This document shows, piece after piece, positions 6,590 through 53,531 of a stretch of DNA of 64,000 nucleotides; positions within the stretch are counted from its first letter, which is position 1, and the number at the start of each line of letters is the position of its first letter. This DNA comes from Acidobacteriota bacterium (GTDB lineage Bacteria; Acidobacteriota; Thermoanaerobaculia; Multivoradales; J023). The stretch is from the NCBI GenBank assembly GCA_038747035.1, contig JBCDKB010000001.1, positions 2,029 to 66,028 on the forward strand. Reading direction: 5' to 3'. Under the pieces are notes generated by a model. It saw only the letters and a program-made list of their open reading frames with translations, had not been told where the DNA came from and searched no databases. A program made the translations under genes and the position numbers.

Positions 6590-6880
6590 CTAGCGTCGAG
6601 GCAAGAAAATGAGCCCGTGGAAGACGCCGAGCACGACGATTTCATCGTCGTCGCCGACCTGGTAGGCGATGCGAAAGTGGCCGTAGGTCAGCAGGTGGAT
6701 GTCGGGGCGATCCAAATACGGGTAGTGCTGCCCGAGGTGGGGCGAGCCGGAAAGGGAGACGACCTTGTTGAGGATCGACTCGACCGTTCGCATCGCCGTA
6801 TGCGGCCGATCCTGGGCGATGTATTCGTAAATATCGCGCAGGGACTCGGCGGCTTCCCGCGACCATCTGGGTTGGGCCAC
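6590..6880 (-). CDS. parE: Type II toxin, ParE/RelE superfamily
   Basis: 96 aa. The C-terminus HFRIAYQVGDDDEIVVLGVFHG is the classic ParE/RelE fold signature. It sits immediately downstream of a small antitoxin ORF with a 2-nt gap. Confidence 0.7.
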   Translation of the reverse strand: MAQPRWSREAAESLRDIYEYIAQDRPHTAMRTVESILNKVVSLSGSPHLGQHYPYLDRPDIHLLTYGHFRIAYQVGDDDEIVVLGVFHGLIFLPRR

Positions 6881-11203: not shown

Positions 11204-13075
11204 TCATGGCTCGGGCGTCAGCGACGACTCGAAGTCGCGGCTTGAAGGCGGAGTCGACTCGGCGTCGAGATAATCGGCGACGTTTTCCGACGGCTGGATC
11301 GGGCGCGGCCGGGCCAGGTGATAGCCCTGGCCGAAGTCGATATCGAGATCTTGCAGCGCCTGGAGCAGCGCGACGCTTTCGACATTCTCGGCGATCGTGC
11401 GCGCGTCGATCACGTGGGCCACCTTGTGGATCGAGTCCACCACCGCCCGCGACAGCTTCGAATGCAGCAACTCGCTGACGATATTGCCGTCGATCTTGAC
11501 GAAATCCACCGGCAGCTCGTGCAGGTAGCGGAACGACGACATGCCCGAGCCGAAGTCGTCGAGCGCCCAGCGACAGCGCAACCGGCGCACCTGCTCGATC
11601 ATCTCGGCGGCGCGGCGCAGGTTCGAGACGGCCGCCGTCTCCGTGATCTCGAAACAGAGCTTTTGCCCCGGCAGACCGGTCCGCTCCAGCTCCGAGGCGA
11701 TGCAGCGCGCCACATCGCGGTCGCCCACGGAAGCGCCCGACAGGTTGACCGTGCAGCAGTCGAGCACGTCGAGGAACGACTGGGACTGGGCCACCAGGAT
11801 CGACATGATGCGGCGGATCACCCAGCAGTCGATGGCGGGCATCAAGCCGAATCGCTCCGCCGCCGGCAGGAACTCCCCCGGCGAGTGGCGGGTGCCGTCG
11901 CGGTCGCGGAAGCGCAGCAGCACTTCGAAGTAGAGCGGACCATCCGCCACCAGCGACTTGATGGGCACGATGCGCTGCCACTCGAGCTCGAAGAGGTCTT
12001 GGTCCAGGGCCTGCTGCAGCTTCACGACCCAGTTCATTTGCCCTTGGTGACGGCGCACCTCGGCGGCATCTTTACGGTAGAGCTGGGTCCGCCCGCGGCC
12101 GCGCTGCTTGGCGAGGAAGCACGCCCGGTCGGCGGCGCCCGTCAGGTCATTGAGATCGGCGAAGTCGCCACTGATCGCCACCATGCCGATGGAGACGCCG
12201 ACGCTGAAGCTTTTGTCTTGCCAGACGAATCGGAAGTTGCGGAGCGCTTGGTGCACGTCTTCCGCCACGTGCTCGGCGACCGCCAGGGGGGTATCGTGGA
12301 TCAGCAGGCCAAACTCGTCGCCGCCCAGCCGGGCGAGCACGTCGGCGTCGCGCAGGCGCTCACGGATCAAGCTCGCGATCCACTGCACCAGCATGTCGCC
12401 GGCGGCGTGTCCACAGGTGTCGTTGACCACCTGGAACTGGTCCAGATCCATGTGGCAGAGCACGTCCCCGCGCGGCGCGCCGTCGTCGACGGGGAGCCAC
12501 GAGCCGTCCTGCTGCGCCCGCTCGAAGGCCTCCTCCACATGCTGTTCGAAGGCGCGCCGATTCAAGAGGCCGGTGAGGGCGTCGAACCGGGCGACCCGCG
12601 ATAGACGCTGCGCCAAACGTTCCCGGTCGCTGACGTCCCGGAGCACGAGCACCGCGCCGAGCAGTGGCAGGGGCCGACCGTCGGCCACCGGCTCGTCGTA
12701 GATCGGCCTGACCCCGCCCTCCACCACGAGGCGCTCGCCGTCGCCGCGCACCAAACGCGTACCCTCGGCCAGCGGCAGGGTCTCGCCGCGCCGGACGCAC
12801 TCGGCGATCTCGATTTCGAAATCCTCGTCGTCCAGCAGGGTCAGGACTTCATCGAGCGGCCGACTGCGGGCGTGCTCGAGGGTCCAGCCGACCAGTACCT
12901 CGGCCGCCGGGTTCAGCTCGTCGAGGCGTCCGTCCGGATCGAAGACCAAAACGGCTTCGCCGACGCTCGCCAAGGCGCTCCGCACCTTGCGCAGCATCCT
13001 GCCATCGTCTCGAGGTTCGTGGCCGGCCCGCGGCGGACTGAGCTCGGCCCGTCCAGAGGGAATCGTCGTAGACAC
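11204..13075 (-). CDS. PAS-GGDEF-EAL c-di-GMP signalling protein
   Basis: GGDEF region RLGGDEFGLL with an upstream LTGLLNRRAF; EAL region with motifs ...FEVLLR, DDFGSGMSSFRYL, KIDGNIV. Confidence 0.85.
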   Translation of the reverse strand: MSTTIPSGRAELSPPRAGHEPRDDGRMLRKVRSALASVGEAVLVFDPDGRLDELNPAAEVLVGWTLEHARSRPLDEVLTLLDDEDFEIEIAECVRRGETLPLAEGTRLVRGDGERLVVEGGVRPIYDEPVADGRPLPLLGAVLVLRDVSDRERLAQRLSRVARFDALTGLLNRRAFEQHVEEAFERAQQDGSWLPVDDGAPRGDVLCHMDLDQFQVVNDTCGHAAGDMLVQWIASLIRERLRDADVLARLGGDEFGLLIHDTPLAVAEHVAEDVHQALRNFRFVWQDKSFSVGVSIGMVAISGDFADLNDLTGAADRACFLAKQRGRGRTQLYRKDAAEVRRHQGQMNWVVKLQQALDQDLFELEWQRIVPIKSLVADGPLYFEVLLRFRDRDGTRHSPGEFLPAAERFGLMPAIDCWVIRRIMSILVAQSQSFLDVLDCCTVNLSGASVGDRDVARCIASELERTGLPGQKLCFEITETAAVSNLRRAAEMIEQVRRLRCRWALDDFGSGMSSFRYLHELPVDFVKIDGNIVSELLHSKLSRAVVDSIHKVAHVIDARTIAENVESVALLQALQDLDIDFGQGYHLARPRPIQPSENVADYLDAESTPPSSRDFESSLTPEP

Positions 13076-13578
13076 GTAGAGTCTAAGTCTTGCGCGGTAG
13101 GGAGCTGGTGGGGAAAGAGATCCTGGATCGGCGTAGCGTCAACGGCACCGCGGCAATCTATCAAACCGTCGGCTTCCCACCGAGGGCCCCGGTGGGTCCC
13201 TGGAAGCCAGCCTCGATACCCTTCATCTCAAGGGACTCGCCCGCCCACCCTTTGCGGGTCGTCCCGGGCTCTTTGGGACTCAATCCGTCGGCATTTACGC
13301 GGTTCCAGAGGCGTGCCCACCGCACAAATGAGACTCGATCTCAACAAACACTCAAACGACGCTAGCTCAAGTGAATCTACAAATATGCGGGGACCGAAGC
13401 TGGTGGTGGGCCCACAAAATTAGAAGCCCGCCGAGTTTTGCAGAACCCGGCGAGCCGCCAGAGTAACGCTCGACGACGCGTCGTGACCAGCCAGTCGAAC
13501 CGCGCCTGTTCGAGCACTAATACCGGCGCCTTCCTATACGGAAATCTCACATCCGTGGTTTGGCGCGAGGAGAACCCC

Positions 13579-14343
13579 GTGGATTTACCGACCCTCTCAA
13601 TCGGCCAATTCGACCTGGTCTACAACTTCTTTTCGCTAACGATCGCGACGATGTTCGCGTCGGGCATCTTCTTCTTTTTAGGCCAGCGCCTGGTCGCGCC
13701 GAAGTACCGCGTCGGCGTGATCGTTTCCGGCATTGTCGTCTTCGTCGCCGGCTACCACTATTATCGAATCTGGGAGAGCTGGCACGCCGCTTATACCTTG
13801 ACCGAAGGCTCCTACGTGGCGAGCGGCGTGCCGTTCAACGACGCTTATCGCTACGCCGACTGGCTGATCACCGTGCCGCTGCTGCTGATTGAGCTCATCG
13901 CCGTGCTCGGCCTCGCCAAGGCCATTTCCGGCCCGATGCTGCGCAACCTTTCGATCGCTTCCGTCATCATGATCGCCCTCGGCTACCCCGGCGAAGTCGC
14001 CAGTGACTCCGGCACGGCTTGGATTTTCTGGTTCCTCGCCATGATTCCGTTCCTCTACATCCTCTACGTGCTCTTCGCCCAGCTCAAGGATACGATCGCG
14101 AACGAAACCGGCGAAGTCGCGACGCTCTTCAAGCGAGCGCGCGCCGTCATCGCGATCTCCTGGTGGGTCTATCCGCTCGCCTTCGTGCTGCCGATCCTCG
14201 GCGTGCTTTCGGGTGCGGTCGGCGAGGTCGGACTTCAGGTCGGCTACAGCATCGCCGACCTGATCGCCAAGGCGTTCTACGGCGTCGTGATTTTCCAGAT
14301 CGCGCGCGCCAAGTCGGACGCGGACGGCTACGAACCCGCCTGA
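13579..14343 (+). CDS. Microbial (type I) rhodopsin of the xanthorhodopsin / Gloeobacter-rhodopsin clade; predicted light-driven proton pump
   Basis: Helix C RYADWLITVPLLLIELIAV gives a D/T/E triad at the BR 85/89/96-equivalent positions. Helix G SIADLIAKAFYG carries the Schiff-base Lys. His in GYHYYRIW. The N-terminus LSIGQFDLVYNFFSLTIATMFASGIFFF resembles GR/XR. GTG start at 13579 with AGGAG 7 nt upstream; the longer TTG-initiated ORF from 13438 was rejected. Confidence 0.9.
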   Translation: MDLPTLSIGQFDLVYNFFSLTIATMFASGIFFFLGQRLVAPKYRVGVIVSGIVVFVAGYHYYRIWESWHAAYTLTEGSYVASGVPFNDAYRYADWLITVPLLLIELIAVLGLAKAISGPMLRNLSIASVIMIALGYPGEVASDSGTAWIFWFLAMIPFLYILYVLFAQLKDTIANETGEVATLFKRARAVIAISWWVYPLAFVLPILGVLSGAVGEVGLQVGYSIADLIAKAFYGVVIFQIARAKSDADGYEPA

Positions 14344-14365
14344 TCGGGCGCCGTCACTAGTGAAA

Positions 14366-14386
14366 GGGCCGGGCGAGTCCCGGCCC
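14366..14386 (+). terminator. Stem-loop GGGCCGGG-cgagt-CCCGGCCC immediately after the rhodopsin stop
   Basis: Perfect 8-bp GC stem with a 5-nt loop 22 nt downstream of the stop. A second imperfect hairpin lies at ~14418-14440. May be a partial terminator or attenuator ahead of crtIB. Confidence 0.45.
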
Positions 14387-14482
14387 CCTTCTCCCCAGCT
14401 AGAGTTTTCCTATCGGCATGCTTCGGCGTGCTCCCAGACGGCGTCCTGACGCCGTGCCCCCGCCTGTTCTAAGGAGCTTTCC

Positions 14483-17053
14483 GTGAAGCCAATGAAAGCC
14501 CTCGTCATCGGCGCCGGATTCGGTGGCCTCGCCGCGGCCCTCCGCTTGCGCGCCCGCGGCTACGACGTCACGATCTTCGAGCGTCAAGATCGGCCCGGCG
14601 GCCGGGCGGTGGTCCACCGCCGCGGCGGCTATACGTTCGACGCCGGTCCGACCATCATCACCGCGCCTTTTCTGCTCGACGAGCTTTTCGAGCTCTTCGG
14701 GCGACGTACCGATGACTACGTCACGCTGCGGTCCCTCGAACCGTGGTATCGGATCCGCTTCGACGGCGGTGAGCACCTCGACTACAGCGGCAACCTCGAC
14801 ACGATGGTCGAGGAGATTCGCCGATTCGACGGTCGTGACGCGGACGGCTACCTCCGTCTCCTGGAACACACCCGCAAGATCTACAAAGAGGGCTTCGAGC
14901 GCCTCGGCGACCAGCCGTTCCACGACTTCGGCACCATGATGAAGCTCGCCCCGGCCTTGGCGCGGTTGCGCAGCGACCGCAGCGTCTACCGCCAGACCGC
15001 CCGCTACATCAAACATCCGCTGCTGCGCCAGGCCCTGAGCTTCCATCCGCTGCTCGTCGGCGGCAATCCGTTCACCACCACGTCTATCTATTCCCTGATT
15101 CACTACCTCGAGCGCACCGGCGGAGTGCATTTCGCCATGGGGGGAACCGCCGCCCTCGTCGATGGTTTGGTGCGCCTCTTCGAGGACCAGGGGGGCACCA
15201 TCCGCTACGACGCCACCGTCGACGAAATCCTCGCCGAAGGGGCCACGGGCGGTCGCCGTCGCGCCCGGGCGAAGGGCATCCGTCTGGCCGACGGTGAAGT
15301 GGTCGAGGCCGACGTGGTCGTCGCCAACGCCGACGCGCCCTTCGTCTATAAAAACCTCGTGGCCCCCGAACATCGGGGCAAGTGGAATGACCGGCGCATC
15401 CTGGGCCGCAAGTACTCGATGGGACTTTTTGTACTCTACTTCGGCGCTACGCGCCAGTATGACGAGCTGGCGCACCACGAGATTCTTCTCGGACCCCGCT
15501 ACCGCGGCCTCATCAACGACATCTTCGAGCGCAAAGTCCTTGCGGACGATATGAGTCTTTACCTCCACGCGCCGACCCGCACCGATGCCTCGCTCGCGCC
15601 GGAGGGCTGCGAATCCATGTACGCGCTGGTGCCCGTGCCTAACCTCGAGGCCGGCATCGACTGGTCCGACGCCGGCCCGAGACTGCGGGATCGCCTCGTT
15701 GAACACCTCTCCCAAACGGTCTGCCCGGGGCTCGACTCGGCGATCACCGAAGACTTCTACGTCACCCCGGAGCACTTCAAGAATCGCCTGCTGTCGGTCA
15801 ACGGCGCCGGATTCTCCATCCAACCCGTGCTGACCCAATCCGCCTACTTCCGCTTCCACAACCGCTCCGAGGAGCTGCGGGACCTCTACCTCGTCGGGGC
15901 GGGGACCCATCCGGGCGCCGGCGTCCCGGGGGTCCTGTGCTCCGCGAAAGTCCTCGACCGGCTGCTCGACGAGCGCGAGGACGCCGGGCGGCGACCCGCG
16001 GTGACCGTGCCGGACGTCGGGGCGAGGCAGCCCGAGGCCCTCGATCTGCGTCCGGCCGCCCGCGCCGATCTGGGATCCGACGCGCCCGACTTCTTCGCCG
16101 CGCCCGCCGCCGCCCTGATGGCGAAACGCGCCAAGACATTCAACTTCGCCGCCCGCCTGCTGCCGCGGGCCACGCGGGACCAGGTGGCGACCCTCTACCG
16201 CTTCTGCCGCGTCGTTGACGACCTCGCCGACGACCTCCCCGACCCCGGGGAGAGTCGCGCTTGGCTCAACCGGGTCTACCTCGACCTGGAACGGGGACAC
16301 TCCGAGCTGACGCCGATTTCGGACTTCCTCGACCTCGCCGAGCGGCGGAACATCCCGCGGGAACTCGCCCTCGAGCTCGTCCGCGGCCTGCGTTCAGACC
16401 TCGGCCGCGTGCGCTGCGGCTCAGTGGACGAGCTGGTGCGCTATTGCTACCAGGTCGCGTCGACCGTCGGCGTCATGATGTGCAAGGTCCTCGGCGCGGC
16501 CTCTCCCCAGGCGCCGCTCTACGCCGTCGATCTCGGCATCGCCATGCAGCTGACCAACATAGCCCGCGACGTCGCAGAAGACCTCGAGCACGATCGCATC
16601 TATCTCCCGGCCGCCTGGGTCGACGGAGAAACGGTTCGCCGGGGGGTCGGGGGCGACGCCCGCGCCGCCGCGACGGTCTACAAGACGGTGGAGAGGCTCC
16701 TCGACTTGGCCCACGACTACTACCGGAGCGCCGATTCGGGCATCGAGCTCCTGCCCGCGGGTGCCCAGTGGTCGATCCTCACCGCCGGCCGCAGCTACGA
16801 GGCCATCGGGCACCGCATCCGCGGCCTCGGCCCGGGTTATTGGCAGGGCCGCGTCTTTACCGGCACCGGCCGCAAAGTCGCCGAAAGCCTCAAGGCCGCC
16901 TCCACCCTGACGGCGCGCCAGATCGCCACCGCCTTCGGGCGCGACCCGCGGCCGCGGCGTCACCGCGACCGCCTCCACCTGCCGCTCGCCACGTTGCCGA
17001 GCGCCGCCCTCTGGCGACCGGCCGAATTCGGCCCGGCGCGGGGTCTCGGATGA
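14483..17053 (+). CDS. crtIB: Phytoene desaturase (CrtI) fused in-frame to phytoene synthase (CrtB)
   Basis: N-terminus KALVIGAGFGGLAAALRL (FAD Rossmann) and CrtI-family body to ~aa 495. P/A-rich linker. C-terminus FAARLLPRATRDQVATLYRFCRVVDDLADD ... YCYQVASTVGVM ... NIARDVAEDL is the squalene/phytoene synthase fold. Single 856-aa ORF with no stop. GTG start with AAGGAG. Confidence 0.85.
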   Translation: MKPMKALVIGAGFGGLAAALRLRARGYDVTIFERQDRPGGRAVVHRRGGYTFDAGPTIITAPFLLDELFELFGRRTDDYVTLRSLEPWYRIRFDGGEHLDYSGNLDTMVEEIRRFDGRDADGYLRLLEHTRKIYKEGFERLGDQPFHDFGTMMKLAPALARLRSDRSVYRQTARYIKHPLLRQALSFHPLLVGGNPFTTTSIYSLIHYLERTGGVHFAMGGTAALVDGLVRLFEDQGGTIRYDATVDEILAEGATGGRRRARAKGIRLADGEVVEADVVVANADAPFVYKNLVAPEHRGKWNDRRILGRKYSMGLFVLYFGATRQYDELAHHEILLGPRYRGLINDIFERKVLADDMSLYLHAPTRTDASLAPEGCESMYALVPVPNLEAGIDWSDAGPRLRDRLVEHLSQTVCPGLDSAITEDFYVTPEHFKNRLLSVNGAGFSIQPVLTQSAYFRFHNRSEELRDLYLVGAGTHPGAGVPGVLCSAKVLDRLLDEREDAGRRPAVTVPDVGARQPEALDLRPAARADLGSDAPDFFAAPAAALMAKRAKTFNFAARLLPRATRDQVATLYRFCRVVDDLADDLPDPGESRAWLNRVYLDLERGHSELTPISDFLDLAERRNIPRELALELVRGLRSDLGRVRCGSVDELVRYCYQVASTVGVMMCKVLGAASPQAPLYAVDLGIAMQLTNIARDVAEDLEHDRIYLPAAWVDGETVRRGVGGDARAAATVYKTVERLLDLAHDYYRSADSGIELLPAGAQWSILTAGRSYEAIGHRIRGLGPGYWQGRVFTGTGRKVAESLKAASTLTARQIATAFGRDPRPRRHRDRLHLPLATLPSAALWRPAEFGPARGLG

Positions 17054-18249
17054 CGACCAAGCCGGTCGTTATCGCCGGCGCCGGGGCCGCCGGCCTGAGC
17101 CTGGCGGTCCACCTCCTGGACTCGGGCTGGACCGACCCCCTGGTCTTGGTCGAGCCCCGTGAACACTACCGGGACGATCGCACCTGGTGCTATTGGCATT
17201 TCGGAGACCATCCATTCGAGGGCTGCGTGAGTCGCCGGTGGCGCCGGTGGCGCCTTCGCGCCGCTGACCGCGACGTGGTCAGCGGCTCAACGCAGCATCC
17301 CTACTGCCATATCCGCGGCGGCGACTTCTACGACCATGCCCTGGAGCGGCTGCGCTCCCATCGCCAGGTGCACCTAGAGCTCGGCGCCCGGGTGATCGAC
17401 GTTGAAGACAAAGCCGACGGCGTGCGCGTTGAAACCACCGGCGGCGTGATCGACGGGCGCTACCTTTTCGACTCCCGCCCGACGCCCGTCGCCGACGGAC
17501 TCATCCAGCACTTCGCGGGCCTCTTCGTGCGGGCCGAGGCCGACGTCTTCGACCCCTCCACGCCGACCCTCATGGACTTTCAAGCGATCCGCCCCACCGT
17601 CGACGGCGTGCCGCTGACCGGCGTCCACTTCATCTACCTGCTTCCATTCTCAGCCCGGGAAGCGCTGGTCGAGTCCACGCTCCTGACGCCGAGGGACGAG
17701 TTCTCCGGCTTGGCTTCGGTGGAGACGGGTCATGTCAACGCCGCCCTCGCCTACCTCGAACGGGACTACCCGGCGGCACACGTCGCCGTGCTTCGGCGGG
17801 AAAGGGGCGCGATCCCCATGGCGATCCCGGCGGAGGTCCGCTCGACCCCATCGCCCGACTTCCCGAAACGGCGGTCCCACCGACCCTCCGCCGTGATTCC
17901 GATCGGAACCGCCGCCGGCTGCGCCCGCCCGTCGAGCGGCTACGCCTTCGACGCCATCCAGCGCACCTCGGGGGCGATGGCCCGCGCCCTGACCCTCGGA
18001 CACGATCCCCGCGACGTCCAGGTCTGGAGACGACGAGCGCGCTGGCTGGACAGAATCTTTCTTTCCTTCCTCGAGTCACGGCCCGAGCTGGCGCCTTCGG
18101 TCTTTACGTCACTCTTCGATCACCTGCCCGGGGACCTGATGCCGCGTTTCCTCTCCGACCGCGAGTCGATCCCTGAGGTGATTCGCATGATGAGCGCCAT
18201 GCCGGTGGGGGTCTTTACCCGGGAATGGCTGAGGGTCCAAACGGCCTAG
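17050..18249 (+). CDS. crtY: Lycopene beta-cyclase (CrtY/CrtL family)
   Basis: MTTKPVVIAGAGAAGLSLAVHLL (FAD dinucleotide fold). The ATG overlaps the crtIB stop (ATGA). Length ~399 aa. The longer ORF from 16261 is an out-of-frame artefact overlapping crtB. Confidence 0.75.
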   Translation: MTTKPVVIAGAGAAGLSLAVHLLDSGWTDPLVLVEPREHYRDDRTWCYWHFGDHPFEGCVSRRWRRWRLRAADRDVVSGSTQHPYCHIRGGDFYDHALERLRSHRQVHLELGARVIDVEDKADGVRVETTGGVIDGRYLFDSRPTPVADGLIQHFAGLFVRAEADVFDPSTPTLMDFQAIRPTVDGVPLTGVHFIYLLPFSAREALVESTLLTPRDEFSGLASVETGHVNAALAYLERDYPAAHVAVLRRERGAIPMAIPAEVRSTPSPDFPKRRSHRPSAVIPIGTAAGCARPSSGYAFDAIQRTSGAMARALTLGHDPRDVQVWRRRARWLDRIFLSFLESRPELAPSVFTSLFDHLPGDLMPRFLSDRESIPEVIRMMSAMPVGVFTREWLRVQTA

Positions 18250-18267
18250 CTCGGTTGACTTTCCACG

Positions 18268-19302
18268 ATGCCAGCCCCATTCACCGTCACCTTCGCGTCG
18301 CCCGCTTCCGGAAATGCGACCCCTGAAACCGGCCGAGTCCCCAAAGACTGGTGGCGGGGCCACGCGCGGCTCCTGACCGTCCTCAGCGGGCTCGCCGCCG
18401 CCGCTGTCATCGCTTGGGGATCCCCTCAGCTGAAGACCCAGCTGCTGCTCCTCGCCGTCGGCGTCGCCGTCCTCGGCGTTCCCCACGGAGCCCTGGACCA
18501 TGTGATCGGCCGCCGACTCCTCCGGCGGCCCCTCGGCCCCTATTGGGCGCCCGCCTTCTTCGGCACCTACCTCGGCCTCGCGGCGCTGGTGCTGGTGGCG
18601 TGGTGGCACTGGCCGATCGCGTCGCTGGTCGCTTTTCTCGGGATATCAGCGCTCCACTTCGGACTCGGCGACGTCCGCCGGGAGCTCTCGGCGTCGACGC
18701 TTTTCCCCCTTGAGGTGGCCGCCCGCGGTGCGCTGCCCCTCGCGGCGCCCATGCTTTTCCACCCGCAGGAAGTCGCCCACCTCTTCGGCGCATTGGTCGC
18801 CGGCCCTGGGCCGACCGCGGAGGCGGTTTGGCGATACGCGGCGATCATCGCCGCCATGCTGGCGCCCGCCCTCGGCTGGTCCCTCTATCACCACGCCCGG
18901 CGAACGTTCGCCCGCGCACCCGGCCCCCACGGCGAGGTGATCGCCGAGGTCCTCGGCCTGCTGGTTCTCTTTTGGGCCGCTCCGCCGCTCATCGCTTTCC
19001 TCCTCTACTTCTGCGGCTGGCACTCGGCTCGACACACCCTTGAAACGGCCGAAGAGCTGATGCCGGGTCCACTGCGTGAGGGACTCTCGACGTTTATTCG
19101 TCTGGCGGTCCCGCTCACCGTCGCGACGCTGGCCCTCGCCGCCGTCGCCTGGATGCTGCTCACTACGCACGGCCAAGGCGTGGACCCGGCGCTGCTCCAG
19201 GTGGTCTTTATCGGACTTGCGGCGCTGACCGTGCCCCATATGATGCTGTGCGCCGCCGCCCAGAGGCTGCCGGAGGAGTCACCGGCCTCCGTCCGGTCCT
19301 AA
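18268..19302 (+). CDS. blh: Brp/Blh-family beta-carotene 15,15'-dioxygenase (retinal-forming)
   Basis: Multi-pass membrane protein with conserved His-containing motifs VPHGALDH, ALHFGLGD, CGWHSARH, VPHMML. Confidence 0.8.
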   Translation: MPAPFTVTFASPASGNATPETGRVPKDWWRGHARLLTVLSGLAAAAVIAWGSPQLKTQLLLLAVGVAVLGVPHGALDHVIGRRLLRRPLGPYWAPAFFGTYLGLAALVLVAWWHWPIASLVAFLGISALHFGLGDVRRELSASTLFPLEVAARGALPLAAPMLFHPQEVAHLFGALVAGPGPTAEAVWRYAAIIAAMLAPALGWSLYHHARRTFARAPGPHGEVIAEVLGLLVLFWAAPPLIAFLLYFCGWHSARHTLETAEELMPGPLREGLSTFIRLAVPLTVATLALAAVAWMLLTTHGQGVDPALLQVVFIGLAALTVPHMMLCAAAQRLPEESPASVRS

Positions 19303-19423
19303 GCGTTCGGTCCTAGGCGTTCGGTTCTCAGCGATCCAGTCGCGGTGGAGGACACCGCAGCCCCGCGCCCTGGGACCGATCCCGAGCAGGCGGGCCCCCA
19401 GGGACCGAGCTAAACTCGGGGCC

Positions 19424-19837
19424 ATGACTGCCACCATCTTCGACAAAATTCTTGACGGCGACATCCCTTGCCACCGCGTCTACGAGAACGAGCACGTGCT
19501 CGCTTTCTTGGACATCAACCCCCTGGCCCCCGGCCACACGCTGGTGATCCCCAAGGAGCGCCGCGCCCATCTCCACGAGCTCTCGGACGACGCCGCGGCG
19601 GCCCTCGGGCGGGCGCTGCCGCGGATCTGCCGGGCGGTGCTCGCGGCCACCGGTGCCGAGCACTACAACGTGCTGCAAAATAACGGCGCCCCAGCACACC
19701 AGGCGGTCTTCCACGTGCACTTCCACATCATTCCGCGCGTCGGCGAGCGCGGGCTCGGCGTCGGCTGGCGCCCGGAGAGCCTCACCGACGCCGAGGCGCT
19801 GCTCGAGCAGCTCCACGCCGCCCTCGACGCGGAGTAG
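19424..19837 (+). CDS. HIT-family (histidine triad) nucleotide hydrolase
   Basis: HVHFHIIPR histidine triad; ~137 aa. Confidence 0.85.
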   Translation: MTATIFDKILDGDIPCHRVYENEHVLAFLDINPLAPGHTLVIPKERRAHLHELSDDAAAALGRALPRICRAVLAATGAEHYNVLQNNGAPAHQAVFHVHFHIIPRVGERGLGVGWRPESLTDAEALLEQLHAALDAE

Positions 19838-19997
19838 GAACTTCAACTGACGGCTGTGTCAAAGACGTCACGGGGCGTCGCCAGATCATCACGCCTTGTC
19901 AGGGCCGGGTTTACGAACGTCACGCTTTGGCGACGAAGGGCCGGGCGGTGACTCTAGATTGGCCTCGGCTTCTAAGGTCAGCGTCAGGAGGCCTGAC

Positions 19998-21131
19998 ATG
20001 ACCAACCCGACTCTGAACGACACCGCACACAAAACCGCCCCCGAGACCGGGATCGCCAGCCTCGGCGTGGCGTTACCTTCCCTCTTCCTCGAATTGGATG
20101 ACCTGGCTGAGCTTCGCGGCGCCGATCCCGCCAAGTTCCGCTTCGGCCTCGGCTGCCACCAGATGGCGCTCTGCGACGCCGAAGAAGGCGTCGTCGATCT
20201 GGCCCAGCGCGCCGCCCAGCGCGCCCTCGACCGCTGGTCGGGAAGCGTTGAAGACATTGGCCTGATCGCCGTCGGCACCGAATCCGCGGTCGATATGTCC
20301 CGTCCGCTTTCGGCGTGGGTCGCCGAAGCGATCGGCGTGCGCGGCGCCGTGCGCAGCTACGAAGTCAAGCACGCTTGCTACGGCGGCACCTTGGCCCTCC
20401 GGCAGGCCATTGAGTGGCGCCGCTCCGGCGCCGCCCGCGGCAAGGCCGCTTTGGTGATCGCCGCCGACGTGGCTCTCTATGCCCCGGAAGACCCCGGTGA
20501 ACCGACCCAAGGGGCCGGCGCCGTCGCCTTCATCGTCGCCGAGCCGGAGGTCGCCCGCGTCGACCTCGAGACCGCCGTTTTCTCCGAACCCGCCTTCGAC
20601 TTCTGGCGCCCCGTGGGCGAAGACTTCCCGCGGGTCGACGGCAAGTTCAGCCTCGACTGCTATAAGCGCGCCACCCTGGAATGCCTCGGCCAGTGGGCCG
20701 GGGACGGCGCGGCGGTCGACGCCCTCGAAGCCCTCGACGCGGCCTGCTTCCACGTGCCCTTCCCCAAGATGGTGCAAAAAGCGGTGCGCCACGTGGGCGA
20801 AGAGCTCGGCGCCGAGGCCGACTGGGCCGACGACTACTTCAAACGGCGGATCGCGCCGTCCATGGGGTGGAATCAAAAGGTCGGCAACGCCTACACCGCG
20901 AGCCTGTGGATTTCCGTCGCCCAGGCCCTCGGCGGCCGGGCCGACGGCGAACGCCTGATCGCCTTTTCCTACGGCTCCGGCTACGGCTCCGAGCTCTTGG
21001 GACTCGAGGCGGGCCCGCGCGCCGCCGACGCCGCGTGGTTCACCGACGTCGAGCAGGACCTCGAAAGCCGGCGCCGCCTCGACATCGCCGCCTACCGCCA
21101 GCTGCGCGGCCAGGCGAAGAAAGCCGCCTAG
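19998..21131 (+). CDS. mvaS: Hydroxymethylglutaryl-CoA synthase
   Basis: Motifs GTESAVDMSRP, HACYGGT, FSYGSG; ~378 aa; CAGGAGG RBS ahead of the ATG at 19998. Confidence 0.85.
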   Translation: MTNPTLNDTAHKTAPETGIASLGVALPSLFLELDDLAELRGADPAKFRFGLGCHQMALCDAEEGVVDLAQRAAQRALDRWSGSVEDIGLIAVGTESAVDMSRPLSAWVAEAIGVRGAVRSYEVKHACYGGTLALRQAIEWRRSGAARGKAALVIAADVALYAPEDPGEPTQGAGAVAFIVAEPEVARVDLETAVFSEPAFDFWRPVGEDFPRVDGKFSLDCYKRATLECLGQWAGDGAAVDALEALDAACFHVPFPKMVQKAVRHVGEELGAEADWADDYFKRRIAPSMGWNQKVGNAYTASLWISVAQALGGRADGERLIAFSYGSGYGSELLGLEAGPRAADAAWFTDVEQDLESRRRLDIAAYRQLRGQAKKAA

Positions 21132-43610: not shown

Positions 43611-45008
43611 ATGCACGATTCGCAGGAAAACGACGAGGGCTTGGTACTGACCGGACCGCCGCCGAGGGCGCTGATCGCCGACGACCAGCGCGACGTGCTC
43701 GAGTCTTTGCGCTTCTTGCTGCGCGCCGAAGGGTGGCAAGTCGACACCGTGACGTCGCCGCGGCTGCTCGTCGAGCGCCTCAAGCACATGGAAGTCGACG
43801 TGGTGTTGATCGACCTCAACTACACCCGCGACACCACTTCCGGCCAGGAAGGCCTCGATCTCATCCGCGATATCCAGGCCGTGGACGCGGCGCTGCCGAT
43901 CGTCGTGATGACGGCCTGGGCGAGCGTTGAGCTCGCCGTGGAGGCGATGCGTCGAGGCGCCAGCGACTTCGTCGAGAAGCCGTGGGACAATCAGCGCCTA
44001 CTGTCGATCCTGCGGGCGCAAACCGCCCTCTCCCGGGCGGTGCGCCGAGGCCACAGGCTAGAGGCTGAAAACCGCCTGCTGCGTAACGACGCCGCCACGG
44101 AAATGATCGCCGAGTCCAAGGCCATGGCGCCGGTGATGACGCTGATCGAGCGGGTCGGGCCCTCGGACGCCAACGTCTTGATCACGGGCGAAAACGGCAC
44201 CGGCAAGGGCCTCGTGGCGCAGGTGCTGCACCGCGTGTCGAAGCGCGCTGAACGGCCGCTGATTACGGTCAATATCGGCGGGCTGTCGGAGACGATTTTC
44301 GAAAGCGAGCTCTTCGGCCACGTCAAGGGCGCCTTCACCGACGCCAAGAGTGACCGCGTCGGCCGCTTCGAGCTCGCCAGCTCGGGCACGCTCTTCATGG
44401 ACGAGATCGCCAATATGACGCTCTCACAGCAGGCGCGGCTGCTGCGCGTGCTCGAGACCGGTGAGCTCGAGCGGGTCGGTTCTTCGCGCACGCGCCAGGT
44501 CGACGTCCGGCTCGTCTCCGCCACCAACGCCGACCTCGACGACGCCGTGCGCGAGGGCACCTTCCGCCAAGATCTGCTCTTCCGGCTCAATACGGTCGAG
44601 ATTCCGCTGCCGCCGCTGCGCGAGCGGCGTGAAGACATCCCGCTGCTCGCCCACCACTTCCTCGCCGAGCAGGCCCGGCACTACGGCAAGGACCTCGAGC
44701 GCTTCGACGACCAGGCCATGCAGGCCATGCTCGGCCACGCTTGGCCCGGCAACGTCCGCGAGCTCTCCCACGTCATCGAGCGGGCCGTGCTCATGGCCGA
44801 CGGCCAGGTCGTGCGGGCCGCCGACCTCGGCCTCACCCGCGGCAAAGGGGAAGGGGTCAGTCTCGAAGAGATGTCCCTCGAAGAGGTCGAGAAGCTGCTG
44901 ATCAATAAGGCCCTCGAGCGCCACAGCGGCAACGTGTCCGACGCCGCCCGCGCCCTCGGTTTGTCGCGCAGCGCGCTCTATCGACGCCTGGAGAAATACG
45001 GCATTTGA
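43611..45008 (+). CDS. Sigma-54-dependent response regulator (NtrC family)
   Basis: REC domain (ALIADDQRDVLESL ... DVVLIDLNY); AAA+ with GENGTGKGLVA Walker A and GAFTDA loop; C-terminal Fis-type HTH SDAARALGLSRSALYRRL. Confidence 0.9.
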   Translation: MHDSQENDEGLVLTGPPPRALIADDQRDVLESLRFLLRAEGWQVDTVTSPRLLVERLKHMEVDVVLIDLNYTRDTTSGQEGLDLIRDIQAVDAALPIVVMTAWASVELAVEAMRRGASDFVEKPWDNQRLLSILRAQTALSRAVRRGHRLEAENRLLRNDAATEMIAESKAMAPVMTLIERVGPSDANVLITGENGTGKGLVAQVLHRVSKRAERPLITVNIGGLSETIFESELFGHVKGAFTDAKSDRVGRFELASSGTLFMDEIANMTLSQQARLLRVLETGELERVGSSRTRQVDVRLVSATNADLDDAVREGTFRQDLLFRLNTVEIPLPPLRERREDIPLLAHHFLAEQARHYGKDLERFDDQAMQAMLGHAWPGNVRELSHVIERAVLMADGQVVRAADLGLTRGKGEGVSLEEMSLEEVEKLLINKALERHSGNVSDAARALGLSRSALYRRLEKYGI

Positions 45009-46846
45009 CCGCCCCCGGGCCGGCGTCGGCGATCCTGCGCGACCCTTCGCGGGGCCTCTGGCTGGTCTTCGACGGCCGGCGTCGGGTGGTGTCGGCCCAA
45101 ACTCCGAAAGAAGTCCCGGCGGTGCTCGACGCCGTTGACCGGGCCCTCGGCCGGGGGGAGCACGTCGCCGGCTTCTTGAGCTACGAAGCGGCCCCGGCCC
45201 TCGACCCGACCCTGGATGCCCATCCGCCGGGCCCGGACGACCCTCCCCTCGCCTGGTTCCTCTGCGGACCGCCGCCGCGCGCGGTCCAGTCTTTGGACCT
45301 GCCGACCTCGGAGCGGGCGGCGGAGCTGCCGTGGCGGCCGCGGATCGACCGCGACGAACACGCCCGCGCCGTCGAGCAGATTCGAGAGCTGATCGCCGCC
45401 GGCGACACCTACCAGGTGAACTTCACGTTCCCCCTCGAGGCCCGCTGCGACGTCGACGGACTCGAGCTCTTCGCGCACCTGTGGCGCGCCCAAAGGGCCC
45501 CCTACTCGGCGTGGATCGACGCCGGTCGGTGGGCGGTCTGCTCGGCGTCGCCGGAGCTTTTCTTCCGCCAGGAGGGCGATCGCCTGCTCGCCCGGCCGAT
45601 GAAAGGCACGTCGCGCCGGGGGCGCTTCCCCGCCGAAGACGAGCGGCAGCTCCGCGAGCTCCGCTCGCCCAAGAATCGGGCCGAAAACGTCATGATCACC
45701 GACATGACCCGCAACGACCTCGGCCGGCTGGCGGAGCCCGGGAGCGTCCGGGTCGAGAAGCTCTTCGCCGAGCGGACCTACGCCACGGTGCACCAGCTGA
45801 TTTCCGAAGTGAGCGCCCGCACCGTCGCGGCGCCGCTCGACGTCCTGAGGACGCTCTTCCCGTGCGCGTCGATCACCGGCGCGCCGAAGAAGCGCACCAC
45901 GGAGATCATCCACCAGCTCGAGCGGGAGCCCCGCGGCCTCTACACCGGCGCCGTCGGCTGGATCGCCCCGGACCGGCGAGCTCTTTTCTCCGTGGCGATC
46001 CGCACGGCGGTGGTTGACCGCGGGCGCCGGCTGGCCCGCTACGGCGTCGGCGGCGGCATCGTCTGGGACTCGGAGCCGGAGGCGGAATATGACGAGTGCC
46101 GCGCCAAGGCCCTGGTCTTGGCCTCGAAGCCCCGAACTTTCGAGCTGCTCGAGACCCTCCAGTGGCGTCCGACGAGCGGTTTCGGGCACCTCGAGGAGCA
46201 CCTCGATCGCCTCCAAGCGTCGGCGCGGTATTTCGCGTACCCGTGCGACCGGGCGGCGATCCGGGCAGCCGTTGAGGCGCGGGCGGCGGACTGGCCGCCG
46301 GAGCGCCACCGAGTGCGCCTGCGACTCGACGACGCCGGCGCCCTCAGCGTCGAGGCCGCGCCGTGGCCGTGCGCGGGTCGAGAGCGCTGGCGCCTGTGCC
46401 TGGACGACCGTCCGGTCGACGAGCGGGAGCCCCTGCTCTTCCACAAGACCACGGATCGGCGGGTCTACGACGGTGCCCGGCGGCGTCACCCCGGGGCCGA
46501 CGAAGTCGCCCTGTGGAATCGCCACGGTCGGCTGACGGAGGGGACGCGCAGCAACCTCGTCGTGCGATTCGGAGACGACTGGCTGACCCCGCCGCTCGAA
46601 GACGGTCTGCTGCCCGGCGTCTACCGGGCCGTCTTGCTCCGGCGGGGTCGCCTCCGCGAAGCGCCCATCGAGCTTGAAACGCTGGGGCGCGCCGACGCGA
46701 TTTTCGCCGTCAACAGCCTGCGCGGCTGGGTCCGCTGCGAGCTCCAGCCGCCTTCCCACCCAGGCCCCGACGCCCGGGCTCGCTTCGGCGGCGACGCCGC
46801 GGATTCGGATATCGCCGACTCCCGCGTTCCGAGGGAAACTCCATGA
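45005..46846 (+). CDS. pabBC: Aminodeoxychorismate synthase component I fused to an aminodeoxychorismate-lyase-like (class IV aminotransferase fold) domain
   Basis: Chorismate-binding domain (PYSAWIDAG ... SPELFF, GAPK, TGAVGW); the C-terminal ~230 aa has class-IV PLP fold features. ATGA overlap with the preceding regulator. Confidence 0.75.
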   Translation: MTAPGPASAILRDPSRGLWLVFDGRRRVVSAQTPKEVPAVLDAVDRALGRGEHVAGFLSYEAAPALDPTLDAHPPGPDDPPLAWFLCGPPPRAVQSLDLPTSERAAELPWRPRIDRDEHARAVEQIRELIAAGDTYQVNFTFPLEARCDVDGLELFAHLWRAQRAPYSAWIDAGRWAVCSASPELFFRQEGDRLLARPMKGTSRRGRFPAEDERQLRELRSPKNRAENVMITDMTRNDLGRLAEPGSVRVEKLFAERTYATVHQLISEVSARTVAAPLDVLRTLFPCASITGAPKKRTTEIIHQLEREPRGLYTGAVGWIAPDRRALFSVAIRTAVVDRGRRLARYGVGGGIVWDSEPEAEYDECRAKALVLASKPRTFELLETLQWRPTSGFGHLEEHLDRLQASARYFAYPCDRAAIRAAVEARAADWPPERHRVRLRLDDAGALSVEAAPWPCAGRERWRLCLDDRPVDEREPLLFHKTTDRRVYDGARRRHPGADEVALWNRHGRLTEGTRSNLVVRFGDDWLTPPLEDGLLPGVYRAVLLRRGRLREAPIELETLGRADAIFAVNSLRGWVRCELQPPSHPGPDARARFGGDAADSDIADSRVPRETP

Positions 46847-50713: not shown

Positions 50714-52417
50714 TTGACCCCTTTGCCCAAAGACGAGGAGATCTCGATGGACCGTGACGCTCTGATCCATACCCTGGACCGCGCCCGCTGGCTCGATTTG
50801 ACCCAGCCGCTTTCGATCATGACGCCGCCGTGGCCCGGAGAGATGCCGCTCCAGGTCCATTTCTTCAAGCGCCTCACGGGCTCGTTCGGCGGCGGCCAAG
50901 GCGCCAACGGTCAGCTCATCGAGTGGAGCAACAACACCGGCACCCACCTCGTGGGGCCGACGGCCTTCCACTCCGGCCTGCGGTCCCTGTCGGAGATCCC
51001 GCTCACCGAAACCTGCGGCCCGGCGGCGATCGCCGACGTGTCGGCGGAGGTCGAGGACTACGGCTTCTACACCCCCGAGATGGTCGAACGGACCGTCGAG
51101 GTGCGGGAAGGCGACATCCTGATCGTCTATACGGGCTATAGCCGCTACGCGTGGGATCAGCCGGATTGCGAGAATCCCGAAGCCCAGGGCGGCGTCGAAA
51201 ACAAGGAATTCGGCTATTACGTCCGCCACCCCGGACCGTCGCCCGACTTCTTCGACTGGGCGATTTCCAAGAACCTCAAGGTCTTCGGCGTCGACTGCGG
51301 CTGCGCCGAGCATCCGATGAATACGAATATTCGGTTCATGCACGGCCGCGACTACGACAAGGCCTGCGCCCTCGCCAAAGAGCGAACCGGCAAGGAGTGG
51401 GAAGTGCTCTTTCCGCCCGAGGATTACCAGCGCCTGACCCACCAGACCGTGCCCAAGGCCGGCCTCCTGCTGCTGGAAGCGCTGGGCGGCGACCTCGCCG
51501 AGCTTCGCGGACAGCGCACGTGGCTGATGGTGCAGCCCGTCCCCTTCATGGAGGTCGAGTCGGCCTGGTGCCGGGTGGCCGCCGTCGAGCCCGGCGAAGG
51601 CCAAGACCGAGACGAGCTGCACCGCGCCCTCGACTCGATGGAAATGCTCGATATGACCCTGCCGTTCTCGGTGCGCACGCCGCAGTGGGCCAACTACGAG
51701 CCGCTGTCGGTGAAGTACACCAAACGGGTCGGCGGCCTCGACTACGGCTTGGGCCGAAACAACGCCCACTGCCGCGCCAGTTTCCACCTGGCGACCCACA
51801 TGGACGGCGAGAAGCACTTCTGGGCCGGCGGACGCACCGTCGGCGAGGTGCCCCTCGACTATTGGCACGGACCCGGCGTCATCGTCGACATCTCCGATCA
51901 GATCAGCGACTCCAGCGTCTACACGCCGGCGATGATCGAGGAGCGGGTCGACCTGCGGGACGGCGACATCCTGCTGATCAAGACCGGCTTCCACCGCTTC
52001 GGCTGGAACAGCCCGGATTCGGACGAGTTCCGCTACATGATCAAGCACCCCGGCCCGTCCCCGGACTTCGCCCAGTGGTGCATCGACCGCCGGATCAAGT
52101 GGCTCGGCATCGACTGCGTGGCCATGGAACACCCCATGAACACCATCCAGCGCCGCTTCCACCCCAAGACCTTCGCCGAAGCCGAGGCCAAGCTGATCGC
52201 CCAGTTCGGCAAGACCTGGGACGAGATGTACCCCCTCGACCAGTATTACCAAGACATGCACCTGAACCTCTTCCCGAAGGCCATCGTGCACGCCGAGAAC
52301 CTCGGCGGCGCCATCGCCGAGGCCGAAAGCGGGCGCTACTACATCGGCGCCTTCATCCAGCGGGGCATGGAGCTCGCGTCGTGCTGGGGTCGCTTCGTGG
52401 CGATCAAGGAACGCTAG
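50714..52417 (+). CDS. Tandem (duplicated) cyclase-family protein (kynurenine-formamidase-like fold x2)
   Basis: Two homologous halves, each with HxGTHxD-like (NNTGTHLVGP / NNAHCRASFHLATHMDG) and downstream acidic motifs; 567 aa. Confidence 0.65.
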   Translation: MTPLPKDEEISMDRDALIHTLDRARWLDLTQPLSIMTPPWPGEMPLQVHFFKRLTGSFGGGQGANGQLIEWSNNTGTHLVGPTAFHSGLRSLSEIPLTETCGPAAIADVSAEVEDYGFYTPEMVERTVEVREGDILIVYTGYSRYAWDQPDCENPEAQGGVENKEFGYYVRHPGPSPDFFDWAISKNLKVFGVDCGCAEHPMNTNIRFMHGRDYDKACALAKERTGKEWEVLFPPEDYQRLTHQTVPKAGLLLLEALGGDLAELRGQRTWLMVQPVPFMEVESAWCRVAAVEPGEGQDRDELHRALDSMEMLDMTLPFSVRTPQWANYEPLSVKYTKRVGGLDYGLGRNNAHCRASFHLATHMDGEKHFWAGGRTVGEVPLDYWHGPGVIVDISDQISDSSVYTPAMIEERVDLRDGDILLIKTGFHRFGWNSPDSDEFRYMIKHPGPSPDFAQWCIDRRIKWLGIDCVAMEHPMNTIQRRFHPKTFAEAEAKLIAQFGKTWDEMYPLDQYYQDMHLNLFPKAIVHAENLGGAIAEAESGRYYIGAFIQRGMELASCWGRFVAIKER

Positions 52418-52421
52418 GTCG

Positions 52422-53531
52422 ATGGCGGGGAATTCCTTCGGCCAGGCCCTGCGCCTGACCACGGCGGGCGAATCCCACGGCCCGGCGAATGTCGTCATCC
52501 TCGACGGCGTGCCGCCGGGTCTGGAGCTCTCCGTCGACGACCTCATACCGGACCTCGAGCGGCGACGGCCCGGGCAATCGAAAATCACCACCCAGCGCAA
52601 AGAGCCGGATCTGCCGAAGATTCTCTCCGGCGTCTTCGAGGGACGCACCACCGGCACCTCGATCGCGATCGTGATCGAGAACGTCGACCAGCGGTCGCGG
52701 GACTATTCAGAGATCCAAGGCAAGTACCGGCCCGGCCACGCCGACTTCACCTTCGACGCCAAGTACGGCTTCCGCGACTACCGCGGCGGCGGCCGCTCGA
52801 GCGCCCGCGAAACCGGCGTCCGGGTCGCCGCCGGGGCGGTGGCGAAAAAATTGCTCCGCAGCCTCGGCGTCGAGGTCTTGGGCTGGGTGATCCAGGTCGG
52901 CGACATCCACGCGGACGTTCCTGACGTGAATGCCGTGACCCTCGCCGACGTGGAGGCGACCCCGGTCCGCTGCCCCGATCCCGAGACGGCGCCGCGCATG
53001 ATCGAGCTGATCGAACGGGTCCGCTCCGAGCGGGACTCGATCGGCGGCGTCGCCGAGATCGTCGCCACCGGCGTGCCGCCGGGCTGGGGCGAGCCGGTCT
53101 TCGACAAGCTCAAAGCCGACCTCGGCAAAGCGATGTTCAGCCTGCCGGCGGTGGTCGGCGTCGAGTACGGCGCCGGTTTCGCCGTCGCGTCGGCCCGCGG
53201 CAGCGAGAATAACGACGTCTTCACGCCGCGCCCGCGCGGCGGCATCACCACCCGCGGCAATCGCCACGGCGGCATGCTCGGCGGCATCTCGACCGGCCTG
53301 CCGATCGTGCTGCGCTGCGCCGTCAAGCCCACCAGCTCGATCCCGCAGGACCTTGACACCGTCACCCGCGACGGCGAGCCGACCCAGCTCTCCACCCGCG
53401 GTCGCCACGACCCGTGCCTGCTGCCCCGCTTCGTGCCCATGGCCGAAGCGATGGCGGCGCTGGTGCTCGCCGACCACATGCTTCGCCACCGCGCCCAGAC
53501 CGGCGGGACCGGTCCGCTGCGCCACGGCTAG
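52422..53531 (+). CDS. aroC: Chorismate synthase
   Basis: N-terminus GESHGP; RPGHADFTFDAKYG; RSSARETG. Canonical AroC. Confidence 0.9.
   Translation: MAGNSFGQALRLTTAGESHGPANVVILDGVPPGLELSVDDLIPDLERRRPGQSKITTQRKEPDLPKILSGVFEGRTTGTSIAIVIENVDQRSRDYSEIQGKYRPGHADFTFDAKYGFRDYRGGGRSSARETGVRVAAGAVAKKLLRSLGVEVLGWVIQVGDIHADVPDVNAVTLADVEATPVRCPDPETAPRMIELIERVRSERDSIGGVAEIVATGVPPGWGEPVFDKLKADLGKAMFSLPAVVGVEYGAGFAVASARGSENNDVFTPRPRGGITTRGNRHGGMLGGISTGLPIVLRCAVKPTSSIPQDLDTVTRDGEPTQLSTRGRHDPCLLPRFVPMAEAMAALVLADHMLRHRAQTGGTGPLRHG

Follow-up and report, generated by a model that had tools for sequence, protein, structure and literature searches.

The stretch analysed here, 64,000 nucleotides (nt) of contig JBCDKB010000001.1 from an Acidobacteriota bacterium (assembly GCA_038747035.1; the whole stretch is called the window below), contains a gene, crtIB, in which a phytoene desaturase (CrtI) is joined in frame to a phytoene synthase (CrtB). 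We hold it highly probable (about 0.85) that this open reading frame (ORF) encodes a genuine bifunctional CrtIB enzyme in a retinal cassette. As read from the sequence, the locus is a four-gene co-directional cassette, with genes for a xanthorhodopsin-type opsin, CrtIB, CrtY and Blh, predicted to specify a light-driven proton pump together with a route from geranylgeranyl diphosphate (GGPP) to retinal. An earlier note on this DNA had described crtIB as one ORF of 856 amino acids (aa) made of CrtI, a linker and phytoene synthase; the ORF listing, the translation and the Pfam and NCBIfam matches all agree with that description. The parts of the gene are as follows.

14483..17053, + strand: crtIB, phytoene desaturase fused to phytoene synthase; single ORF of 856 aa with a GTG start (ORF listing)
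14471..14476, + strand: Shine-Dalgarno-like AAGGAG, 6 nt before the crtIB GTG; read from the sequence
14483..15991, + strand: CrtI domain, aa 1-503 (TIGR02734, 4DGK match, AlphaFold2 (AF2) model, Foldseek)
15992..16105, + strand: interdomain linker, aa 504-541, rich in Pro, Ala, Arg and Asp, about 40 aa, with a low AF2 predicted local distance difference test score (pLDDT)
16106..17050, + strand: CrtB (phytoene synthase-type) domain, aa 542-856 (PF00494, Asp-rich motifs)

Domains and reading frame of crtIB

The GTG start is supported by the upstream AAGGAG element and agrees with how far homologues extend at the N-terminus; the NCBI annotation has a protein of 853 aa starting at ATG 14492, three codons after the GTG. 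At the distal end, the crtIB stop codon and the start of the lycopene cyclase gene crtY overlap (...GGT CTC GGA TGA, with ATG ACG starting at 17050). The earlier report of an ATGA overlap is thus confirmed in the sequence, and crtY is translationally coupled to crtIB through it.

The N-terminal half belongs to the CrtI family (TIGR02734/PF01593), scoring above the curated cut-off and carrying both family motifs. The NCBIfam model crtI_fam (TIGR02734) gives 590.1 bits against a cut-off of 238.1 and aligns aa 6-502 with profile positions 1-495 of 504, while Pfam assigns aa 14-488 to Amino_oxidase and aa 8-62 to NAD_binding_8 (family context PF01593). Pantoea CrtI (4DGK) is aligned full length with this half (aa 6-494, E 9.6e-148, about 500 bits); by both comparisons, essentially all of CrtI is covered. 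The GxGxxG motif of the Rossmann fold that binds flavin adenine dinucleotide (FAD) is present as GAGFGG at aa 10-15 (nt 14510-14527), and the C-terminal CrtI motif as GAGTHPGAGVPGV at aa 472-484, the family form being GAGTHPGAG(V/I)PGV. Residues G472, P477, G478, G480 and P482 are invariant in an alignment of 62 fused homologues. From the presence of crtY and blh downstream, we infer that this domain would perform the four-step desaturation of phytoene to lycopene.

The C-terminal half likewise aligns essentially full length with the phytoene/squalene synthase family: PF00494 (SQS_PSY) matches aa 548-792 with 194.8 bits against a gathering cut-off of 26, over profile positions 3-258 of 263. 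Two Asp-rich motifs, DDLAD at aa 579-583 (nt 16217-16231) and DVAED at aa 696-700 (nt 16568-16582), are present. They lie within the sequences FCRVVDDLADD and NIARDVAEDL, which had been singled out previously and are located at aa 574-584 and aa 692-701. D579, D580, D583, D696 and D700 are invariant across the 62 fused homologues. Past the SQS_PSY match, aa 793-856 (approximately 16859-17050) form a C-terminal extension with a nearly invariant H..(L)H..L pattern (H827, L831, H832, L835), which is kept in fused homologues and, judging from tblastn extents, also in unfused CrtBs of retinal cassettes.

In an AF2 model built from a 62-sequence alignment, the mean pLDDT is 91.4; both domains exceed 90 and aa 504-533 fall below 50. 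The interdomain linker is thus predicted to be disordered. The linker sequence quoted in the earlier note is found at aa 502-545 of the translation. Fused homologues differ from one another in both the sequence and the length of the linker, with 46 to 95 aa separating the flanking motifs, and the linkers of different fused clades are mutually unrelated. Its GC content at third codon positions (GC3) is 0.89, a coding-like value. A linker of 45 stop-free codons would arise readily by chance at 70% GC (P about 0.42, not significant). Since the open linker is uninformative when taken alone, the case for a genuine fusion rests on the two domains lying in one stop-free frame and on the conservation of this arrangement elsewhere. 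The top Foldseek matches of the predicted fusion were CrtI (4DGK) and CrtD (4REP), and the Foldseek search found no solved structure of a fused CrtI-CrtB.

Recurrence of the fusion and competing explanations

The same fused architecture was sought in databases, as the earlier note had advised, and was found in independent Acidobacteriota, SAR324 and Polynucleobacter. The identical protein is present in the NCBI metagenome-assembled genome (MAG; P0001) and, as 856 aa at 100% identity, in a separate Logan assembly (P0271). Acidobacteriota MAG proteins at 73, 69-70, 68-69 and 66-68% identity are all fused, with linkers differing in length and sequence, and further fused Acidobacteriota proteins occur at about 55% identity. 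Of the 120 best database matches, every one that is full length is a fused protein. In relatives at 49-73% identity the opsin-crtIB-crtY-blh cassette, fusion included, is embedded in unrelated flanks, and at least 11 fused relatives near the query family reside in cassettes with rhodopsin, crtY and blh. Beyond the Acidobacteriota, the architecture extends to SAR324, to other metagenomic lineages and to Polynucleobacter-type loci, with SAR324 and Polynucleobacter-type loci having the whole cassette, the genomes of the cultured Polynucleobacter brandtiae and Polynucleobacter sp. TUM22923 carrying the fused gene.

Among the alternatives to a bifunctional enzyme, the one that fares best, unlikely as it is, holds that the genes are fused in the DNA and that two proteins are nonetheless made, either because translation also starts internally near Met546 or because a protease cuts the linker, so that the fusion would be without functional meaning. 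Met546, which is conserved in the closest clade, does lie at the start of the CrtB fold, but its codon, ATG 16119, is preceded by no purine-rich ribosome-binding site, whereas the opsin and crtIB starts both show (A/G)AGGAG followed by a 6-nt gap. A long, disordered and unconserved linker fits with cleavage; against this, the fused state has been kept over deep divergence in several clades. Met546 was separately considered as a relic start or an internal start, and rejected: it has no ribosome-binding site, other clades of fused proteins have Leu at this position, and the N-terminus of unfused CrtBs lies about 25 aa before it.

Several observations weigh against a bifunctional, phytoene-processing CrtIB. 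The NCBIfam models for CrtB, while covering the CrtB half almost completely, score below their equivalog cut-offs (NF045921, 159.7 against 500; NF042419, 155.6 against 480), and the HpnD model scores about equally (156.9 bits against a cut-off of 278.6). An equivalog-level assignment to CrtB over HpnD, HpnC or CrtM was thus not reached with the NCBIfam models, and the C40 (GGPP) specificity is taken from context only. In the AF2 model the predicted template modelling score (pTM) is 0.66, so the orientation of one domain to the other, and hence any channel between the active sites, is not fixed by the model. No polyprenyl/GGPP synthase gene (crtE) was found in the window by Pfam among 43 GC3-selected ORFs and a few extra stretches; GGPP must therefore come from a synthase encoded elsewhere. 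The bifunctionality of bacterial CrtIB polypeptides is described as a prediction only (PMC10284914). Finally, a selective advantage through channelling or stoichiometry is something that we infer, and the fusion could be selectively neutral.

The scores of the CrtB half bear directly on a second alternative, namely that the C-terminal domain is another head-to-head prenyl synthase, similar to HpnD or CrtM, whose product does not lead to lycopene. The near-equality of the HpnD score with those of the CrtB models (155-160 bits, all below cut-off) is in line with this, as is the identity of the closest solved relative of the CrtB half, CrtM (8IS6, E 8.6e-27). Yet the partner domain is a canonical CrtI, the adjoining crtY needs lycopene, blh needs beta-carotene and the opsin needs retinal; the cassette is without any second phytoene synthase, and the same type of CrtB is conserved in retinal cassettes of many phyla. 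We therefore regard this alternative as very improbable.

Least probable of all is an artefact, in which crtI and crtB would truly be separate genes and an error in sequencing or assembly would have erased the stop codon of crtI or re-established the frame. In its favour, the linker is poorly conserved and a stretch open over this length is expected by chance, a same-frame stop is present in many relatives so that one base error could mimic a fusion, and a lone fused locus described below (L022) could be such an error. Against it speak the separate Logan assembly, the finished genomes of cultured Polynucleobacter, the linkers of different length in Acidobacteriota MAG proteins (at least five, P0002-P0005 and L002, at 66-73% identity, and others at about 55%), and a GC3 that holds at 0.89 across the linker. 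For practical purposes, the recurrence in independent assemblies and taxa excludes the missed stop or frameshift that the earlier note had asked about, and upholds its claim of a genuine fusion.

Frequency, origin and known counterparts of the fusion

Species-representative genomes were scanned, yielding 81 loci that were each checked for stops between crtI and crtB. Raw tblastn coverage overstated the number of fusions, most "full-coverage" matches being adjacent unfused genes. Truly fused genes were found at 5 of the 81 loci (two Acidobacteriota, two SAR324 and one Azotimanducaceae, L022). At 35 loci the crtI stop is followed a few codons on by crtB in the same frame; at 30, an adjacent crtB is in another frame; at one (L047), crtB is further downstream in another frame; and ten loci are without adjacent crtB. 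The excess of same-frame arrangements in the unfused pairs (35 against 30) is not interpretable, as the ranking of loci favours same-frame tblastn joins. In the Azotimanducaceae MAG (L022, approximately 2680-2800), the junction reads GSGG-Y-IMGN, compared with GSGG-stop-IME in eight close relatives; either a fusion has come about there by a one-codon change from stop to Tyr, or this single MAG contains an error.

These junctions point to loss of the crtI stop codon, with crtB close behind in the operon, as the most probable origin of the fusion. In a neighbour-joining tree of 199 CrtI domains, the fused and unfused states change 8 times, with a minimum of 6 changes over 100 bootstraps and a median of 61 when labels are permuted. 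Together with the unrelated linkers of different clades, these state changes indicate that fusions arose or were lost repeatedly. Going further, we propose tentatively, and with chances somewhat short of even, that the CrtI-CrtB fusion is recurrent and convergent, with at least about six gains by stop-codon loss across phyla and an Acidobacteriota origin separate from the verrucomicrobial one.

The earlier note had remarked that the order of the domains is reversed relative to the pathway, in which CrtB acts before CrtI. The order itself stands, but it calls for no special explanation, since it is what results when the genes of an unfused operon, where crtI normally precedes crtB, are joined. 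Two clusters (P0199 and P0223) have the reverse arrangement, with SQS_PSY first and CrtI second as in the pathway. The statement that a desaturase-synthase fusion is uncommon holds only relative to unfused CrtI: in a search of 1.84 billion representatives clustered at 50% identity, I-B fusions account for about 16 of the best 150. In absolute terms such fusions are abundant, as the 120 best matches mentioned above show, and they had been reported before. Confinement of the fusion to rhodopsin/retinal cassettes was also considered and rejected, as three distant I-B fusions have no opsin or blh nearby; one is accompanied by UbiA/Lycopene_cyc and crtE (P0139), another by crtY and crtE (P0304), and the third stands alone (P0316).

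The query gene is a further example of an already reported, biochemically uncharacterised fusion and not a new kind of system. It shares enzyme families and gene order with the canonical unfused crtI and crtB of (crtE)IBY-blh operons (Pantoea CrtI, 4DGK), in which, however, translation stops after crtI and starts anew at crtB, giving two polypeptides. Fungal CrtYB, a fusion of lycopene cyclase and phytoene synthase, is similarly a natural two-enzyme carotenoid fusion that includes phytoene synthase, but there the partner is a cyclase, the steps are non-consecutive and the host is a eukaryote.

The nearest counterpart is the putative crtIB fusion of verrucomicrobial PR-1 rhodopsin operons, described in Ca. 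Pelagisphaera phototrophica ISCC53 (Bar-Shalom et al. 2023, PMC10284914). There too, a single gene encodes an N-terminal CrtI and a C-terminal CrtB; its product is predicted to be bifunctional, and the gene belongs to a retinal cassette with rhodopsin, crt genes, crtY and blh. The two differ in phylum, in the opsin (xanthorhodopsin-type in the query, proteorhodopsin in the Verrucomicrobia) and in the location of crtE, which lies outside the query cassette, and their linkers are without similarity. In the CrtI tree, unfused lineages separate the query clade from Verrucomicrobia-associated sequences (ISCC53 itself not being in the set), with at least 6 changes in all 100 bootstraps. This suggests that the query fusion may be independent of the verrucomicrobial one.

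Larger fusions exist in eukaryotes: PMC5924542 and PMC10016063 describe a trifunctional CrtIBY in thraustochytrids and a four-domain CrtIBY-Blh in Thecamonas, and the thraustochytrid enzyme is enough to yield beta-carotene in yeast (shown in PMC5924542, according to PMC10016063). These share with the query the I-then-B order and a link to retinal and opsins. The query is bacterial, however, and its protein ends after CrtB, the cyclase being a separate PF05834 gene instead of a fused CrtYc/d and Blh being separate as well; with no cyclase fused, it falls outside the definition of CrtIBY. The profile search also returned proteins resembling the protist CrtIBY(-Blh), namely P0243 (1222 aa) and P0250 and P0267 (about 1450 aa, with a C-terminal Blh domain), the set spanning 1222-1466 aa.

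In the literature searched there is one prior report of a natural bacterial CrtIB, and yet the fusion is abundant in freshwater and marine metagenomes and present in culturable Polynucleobacter. It is the natural counterpart of fusions engineered against intermediate leakage, and independent fusions with unfused sister lineages offer a natural experiment on whether the fusion of consecutive enzymes is adaptive. If the fusions were indeed convergent, they would point to repeated selection for tethering phytoene synthesis to desaturation, via channelling or fixed stoichiometry, with the strongest effect in small operons for retinal supply, whose low carotenoid flux is directed to a single product. 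In evolutionary terms the repeated origin is of modest interest; the gene itself will hold little surprise for a specialist.

Retinal cassette, proposed route and surroundings

The other genes of the cassette are as follows.

13579..14343, + strand: xanthorhodopsin-family opsin, 254 aa, GTG start at 13579 (Pfam Bac_rhodopsin, E 1.4e-36)
17050..18249, + strand: crtY, FAD-type lycopene beta-cyclase (PF05834, E 5.8e-52); the frame begins MTTKPVVIAGAGAAG
18268..19302, + strand: blh, Brp/Blh beta-carotene 15,15'-dioxygenase, start approximate (PF15461, E 3.4e-59)

The GTG start of the opsin gene has GAGGAG 6 nt upstream (13567-13572), and relatives are 254-260 aa long. The closest solved relative of the opsin is Salinibacter xanthorhodopsin (XR; 3DDL, E 5.9e-79); its DTE proton-pump motif aligns with XR D96/T100/E107, and the Schiff-base Lys is found in "DLIAKAFYG". 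The assignment of blh is strengthened by TIGR03753, for which it scores 206.8 bits where 95 are required. The flanking opsin and blh genes, unremarked in the earlier note, would define the biological role of crtIB, and the locus makes a clean, compact Acidobacteriota cassette for rhodopsin phototrophy in which two consecutive membrane-associated carotenoid steps reside on one polypeptide. Many fused relatives do carry crtE, which either separates the opsin gene from crtIB or follows blh.

Following established carotenoid biochemistry, the C-terminal CrtB domain would condense two GGPP to 15-cis-phytoene at its two Asp-rich Mg2+/diphosphate sites, and the N-terminal FAD-dependent CrtI domain would introduce four desaturations, converting phytoene to all-trans-lycopene. 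The translationally coupled CrtY would then form beta-carotene, which Blh would cleave to two retinal, bound at the Schiff-base lysine of the xanthorhodopsin-type pump. The two domains are joined by the flexible, fast-evolving linker of about 40 aa. Their fusion may impose a 1:1 stoichiometry and hold the synthesis and the desaturation of phytoene, a very hydrophobic intermediate, side by side at the membrane. Both of these gains fit the behaviour of synthetic carotenoid-enzyme fusions, which lower the accumulation of intermediates according to PMC6350077 in the summary given by PMC10284914.

It is Gly156 that provides xanthorhodopsin with the fenestration for its carotenoid antenna. The alignment with 3DDL places a Trp ("AWIFWFLAM") at this position of the opsin. 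The pump is probably without a bound antenna carotenoid, which would fit a retinal-only cassette.

In the gap between the opsin gene and crtIB (14344-14482), a stem-loop was not significant (z-score -1.41), and no sigma-70-like promoter was found in 12900-19900. Downstream of blh lie a HIT-family gene (19424-19837) and a gene for 3-hydroxy-3-methylglutaryl-CoA (HMG-CoA) synthase (19896-21131). The divergent neighbour of the opsin gene in the window encodes a PAS-GGDEF-EAL protein (11204-13075, - strand). In two Acidobacteriota-type relatives (L083, 2875-3813; L086, 2048-2980), the opsin gene is adjoined by a divergent gene for a MerR/B12-binding (CarH-like) regulator, and one of the two has a photolyase gene in addition.

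Elsewhere in the window, a 613-aa ORF (45005-46846) joins a chorismate-binding (PabB-like) part to an aminotransferase class IV (PabC-like) part. A 567-aa ORF (50714-52417) contains two stretches matched by the "Putative cyclase" family PF04199 and adjoins the chorismate synthase gene (52422-53531). A ParE-family toxin gene is located at 6590-6880 on the - strand.

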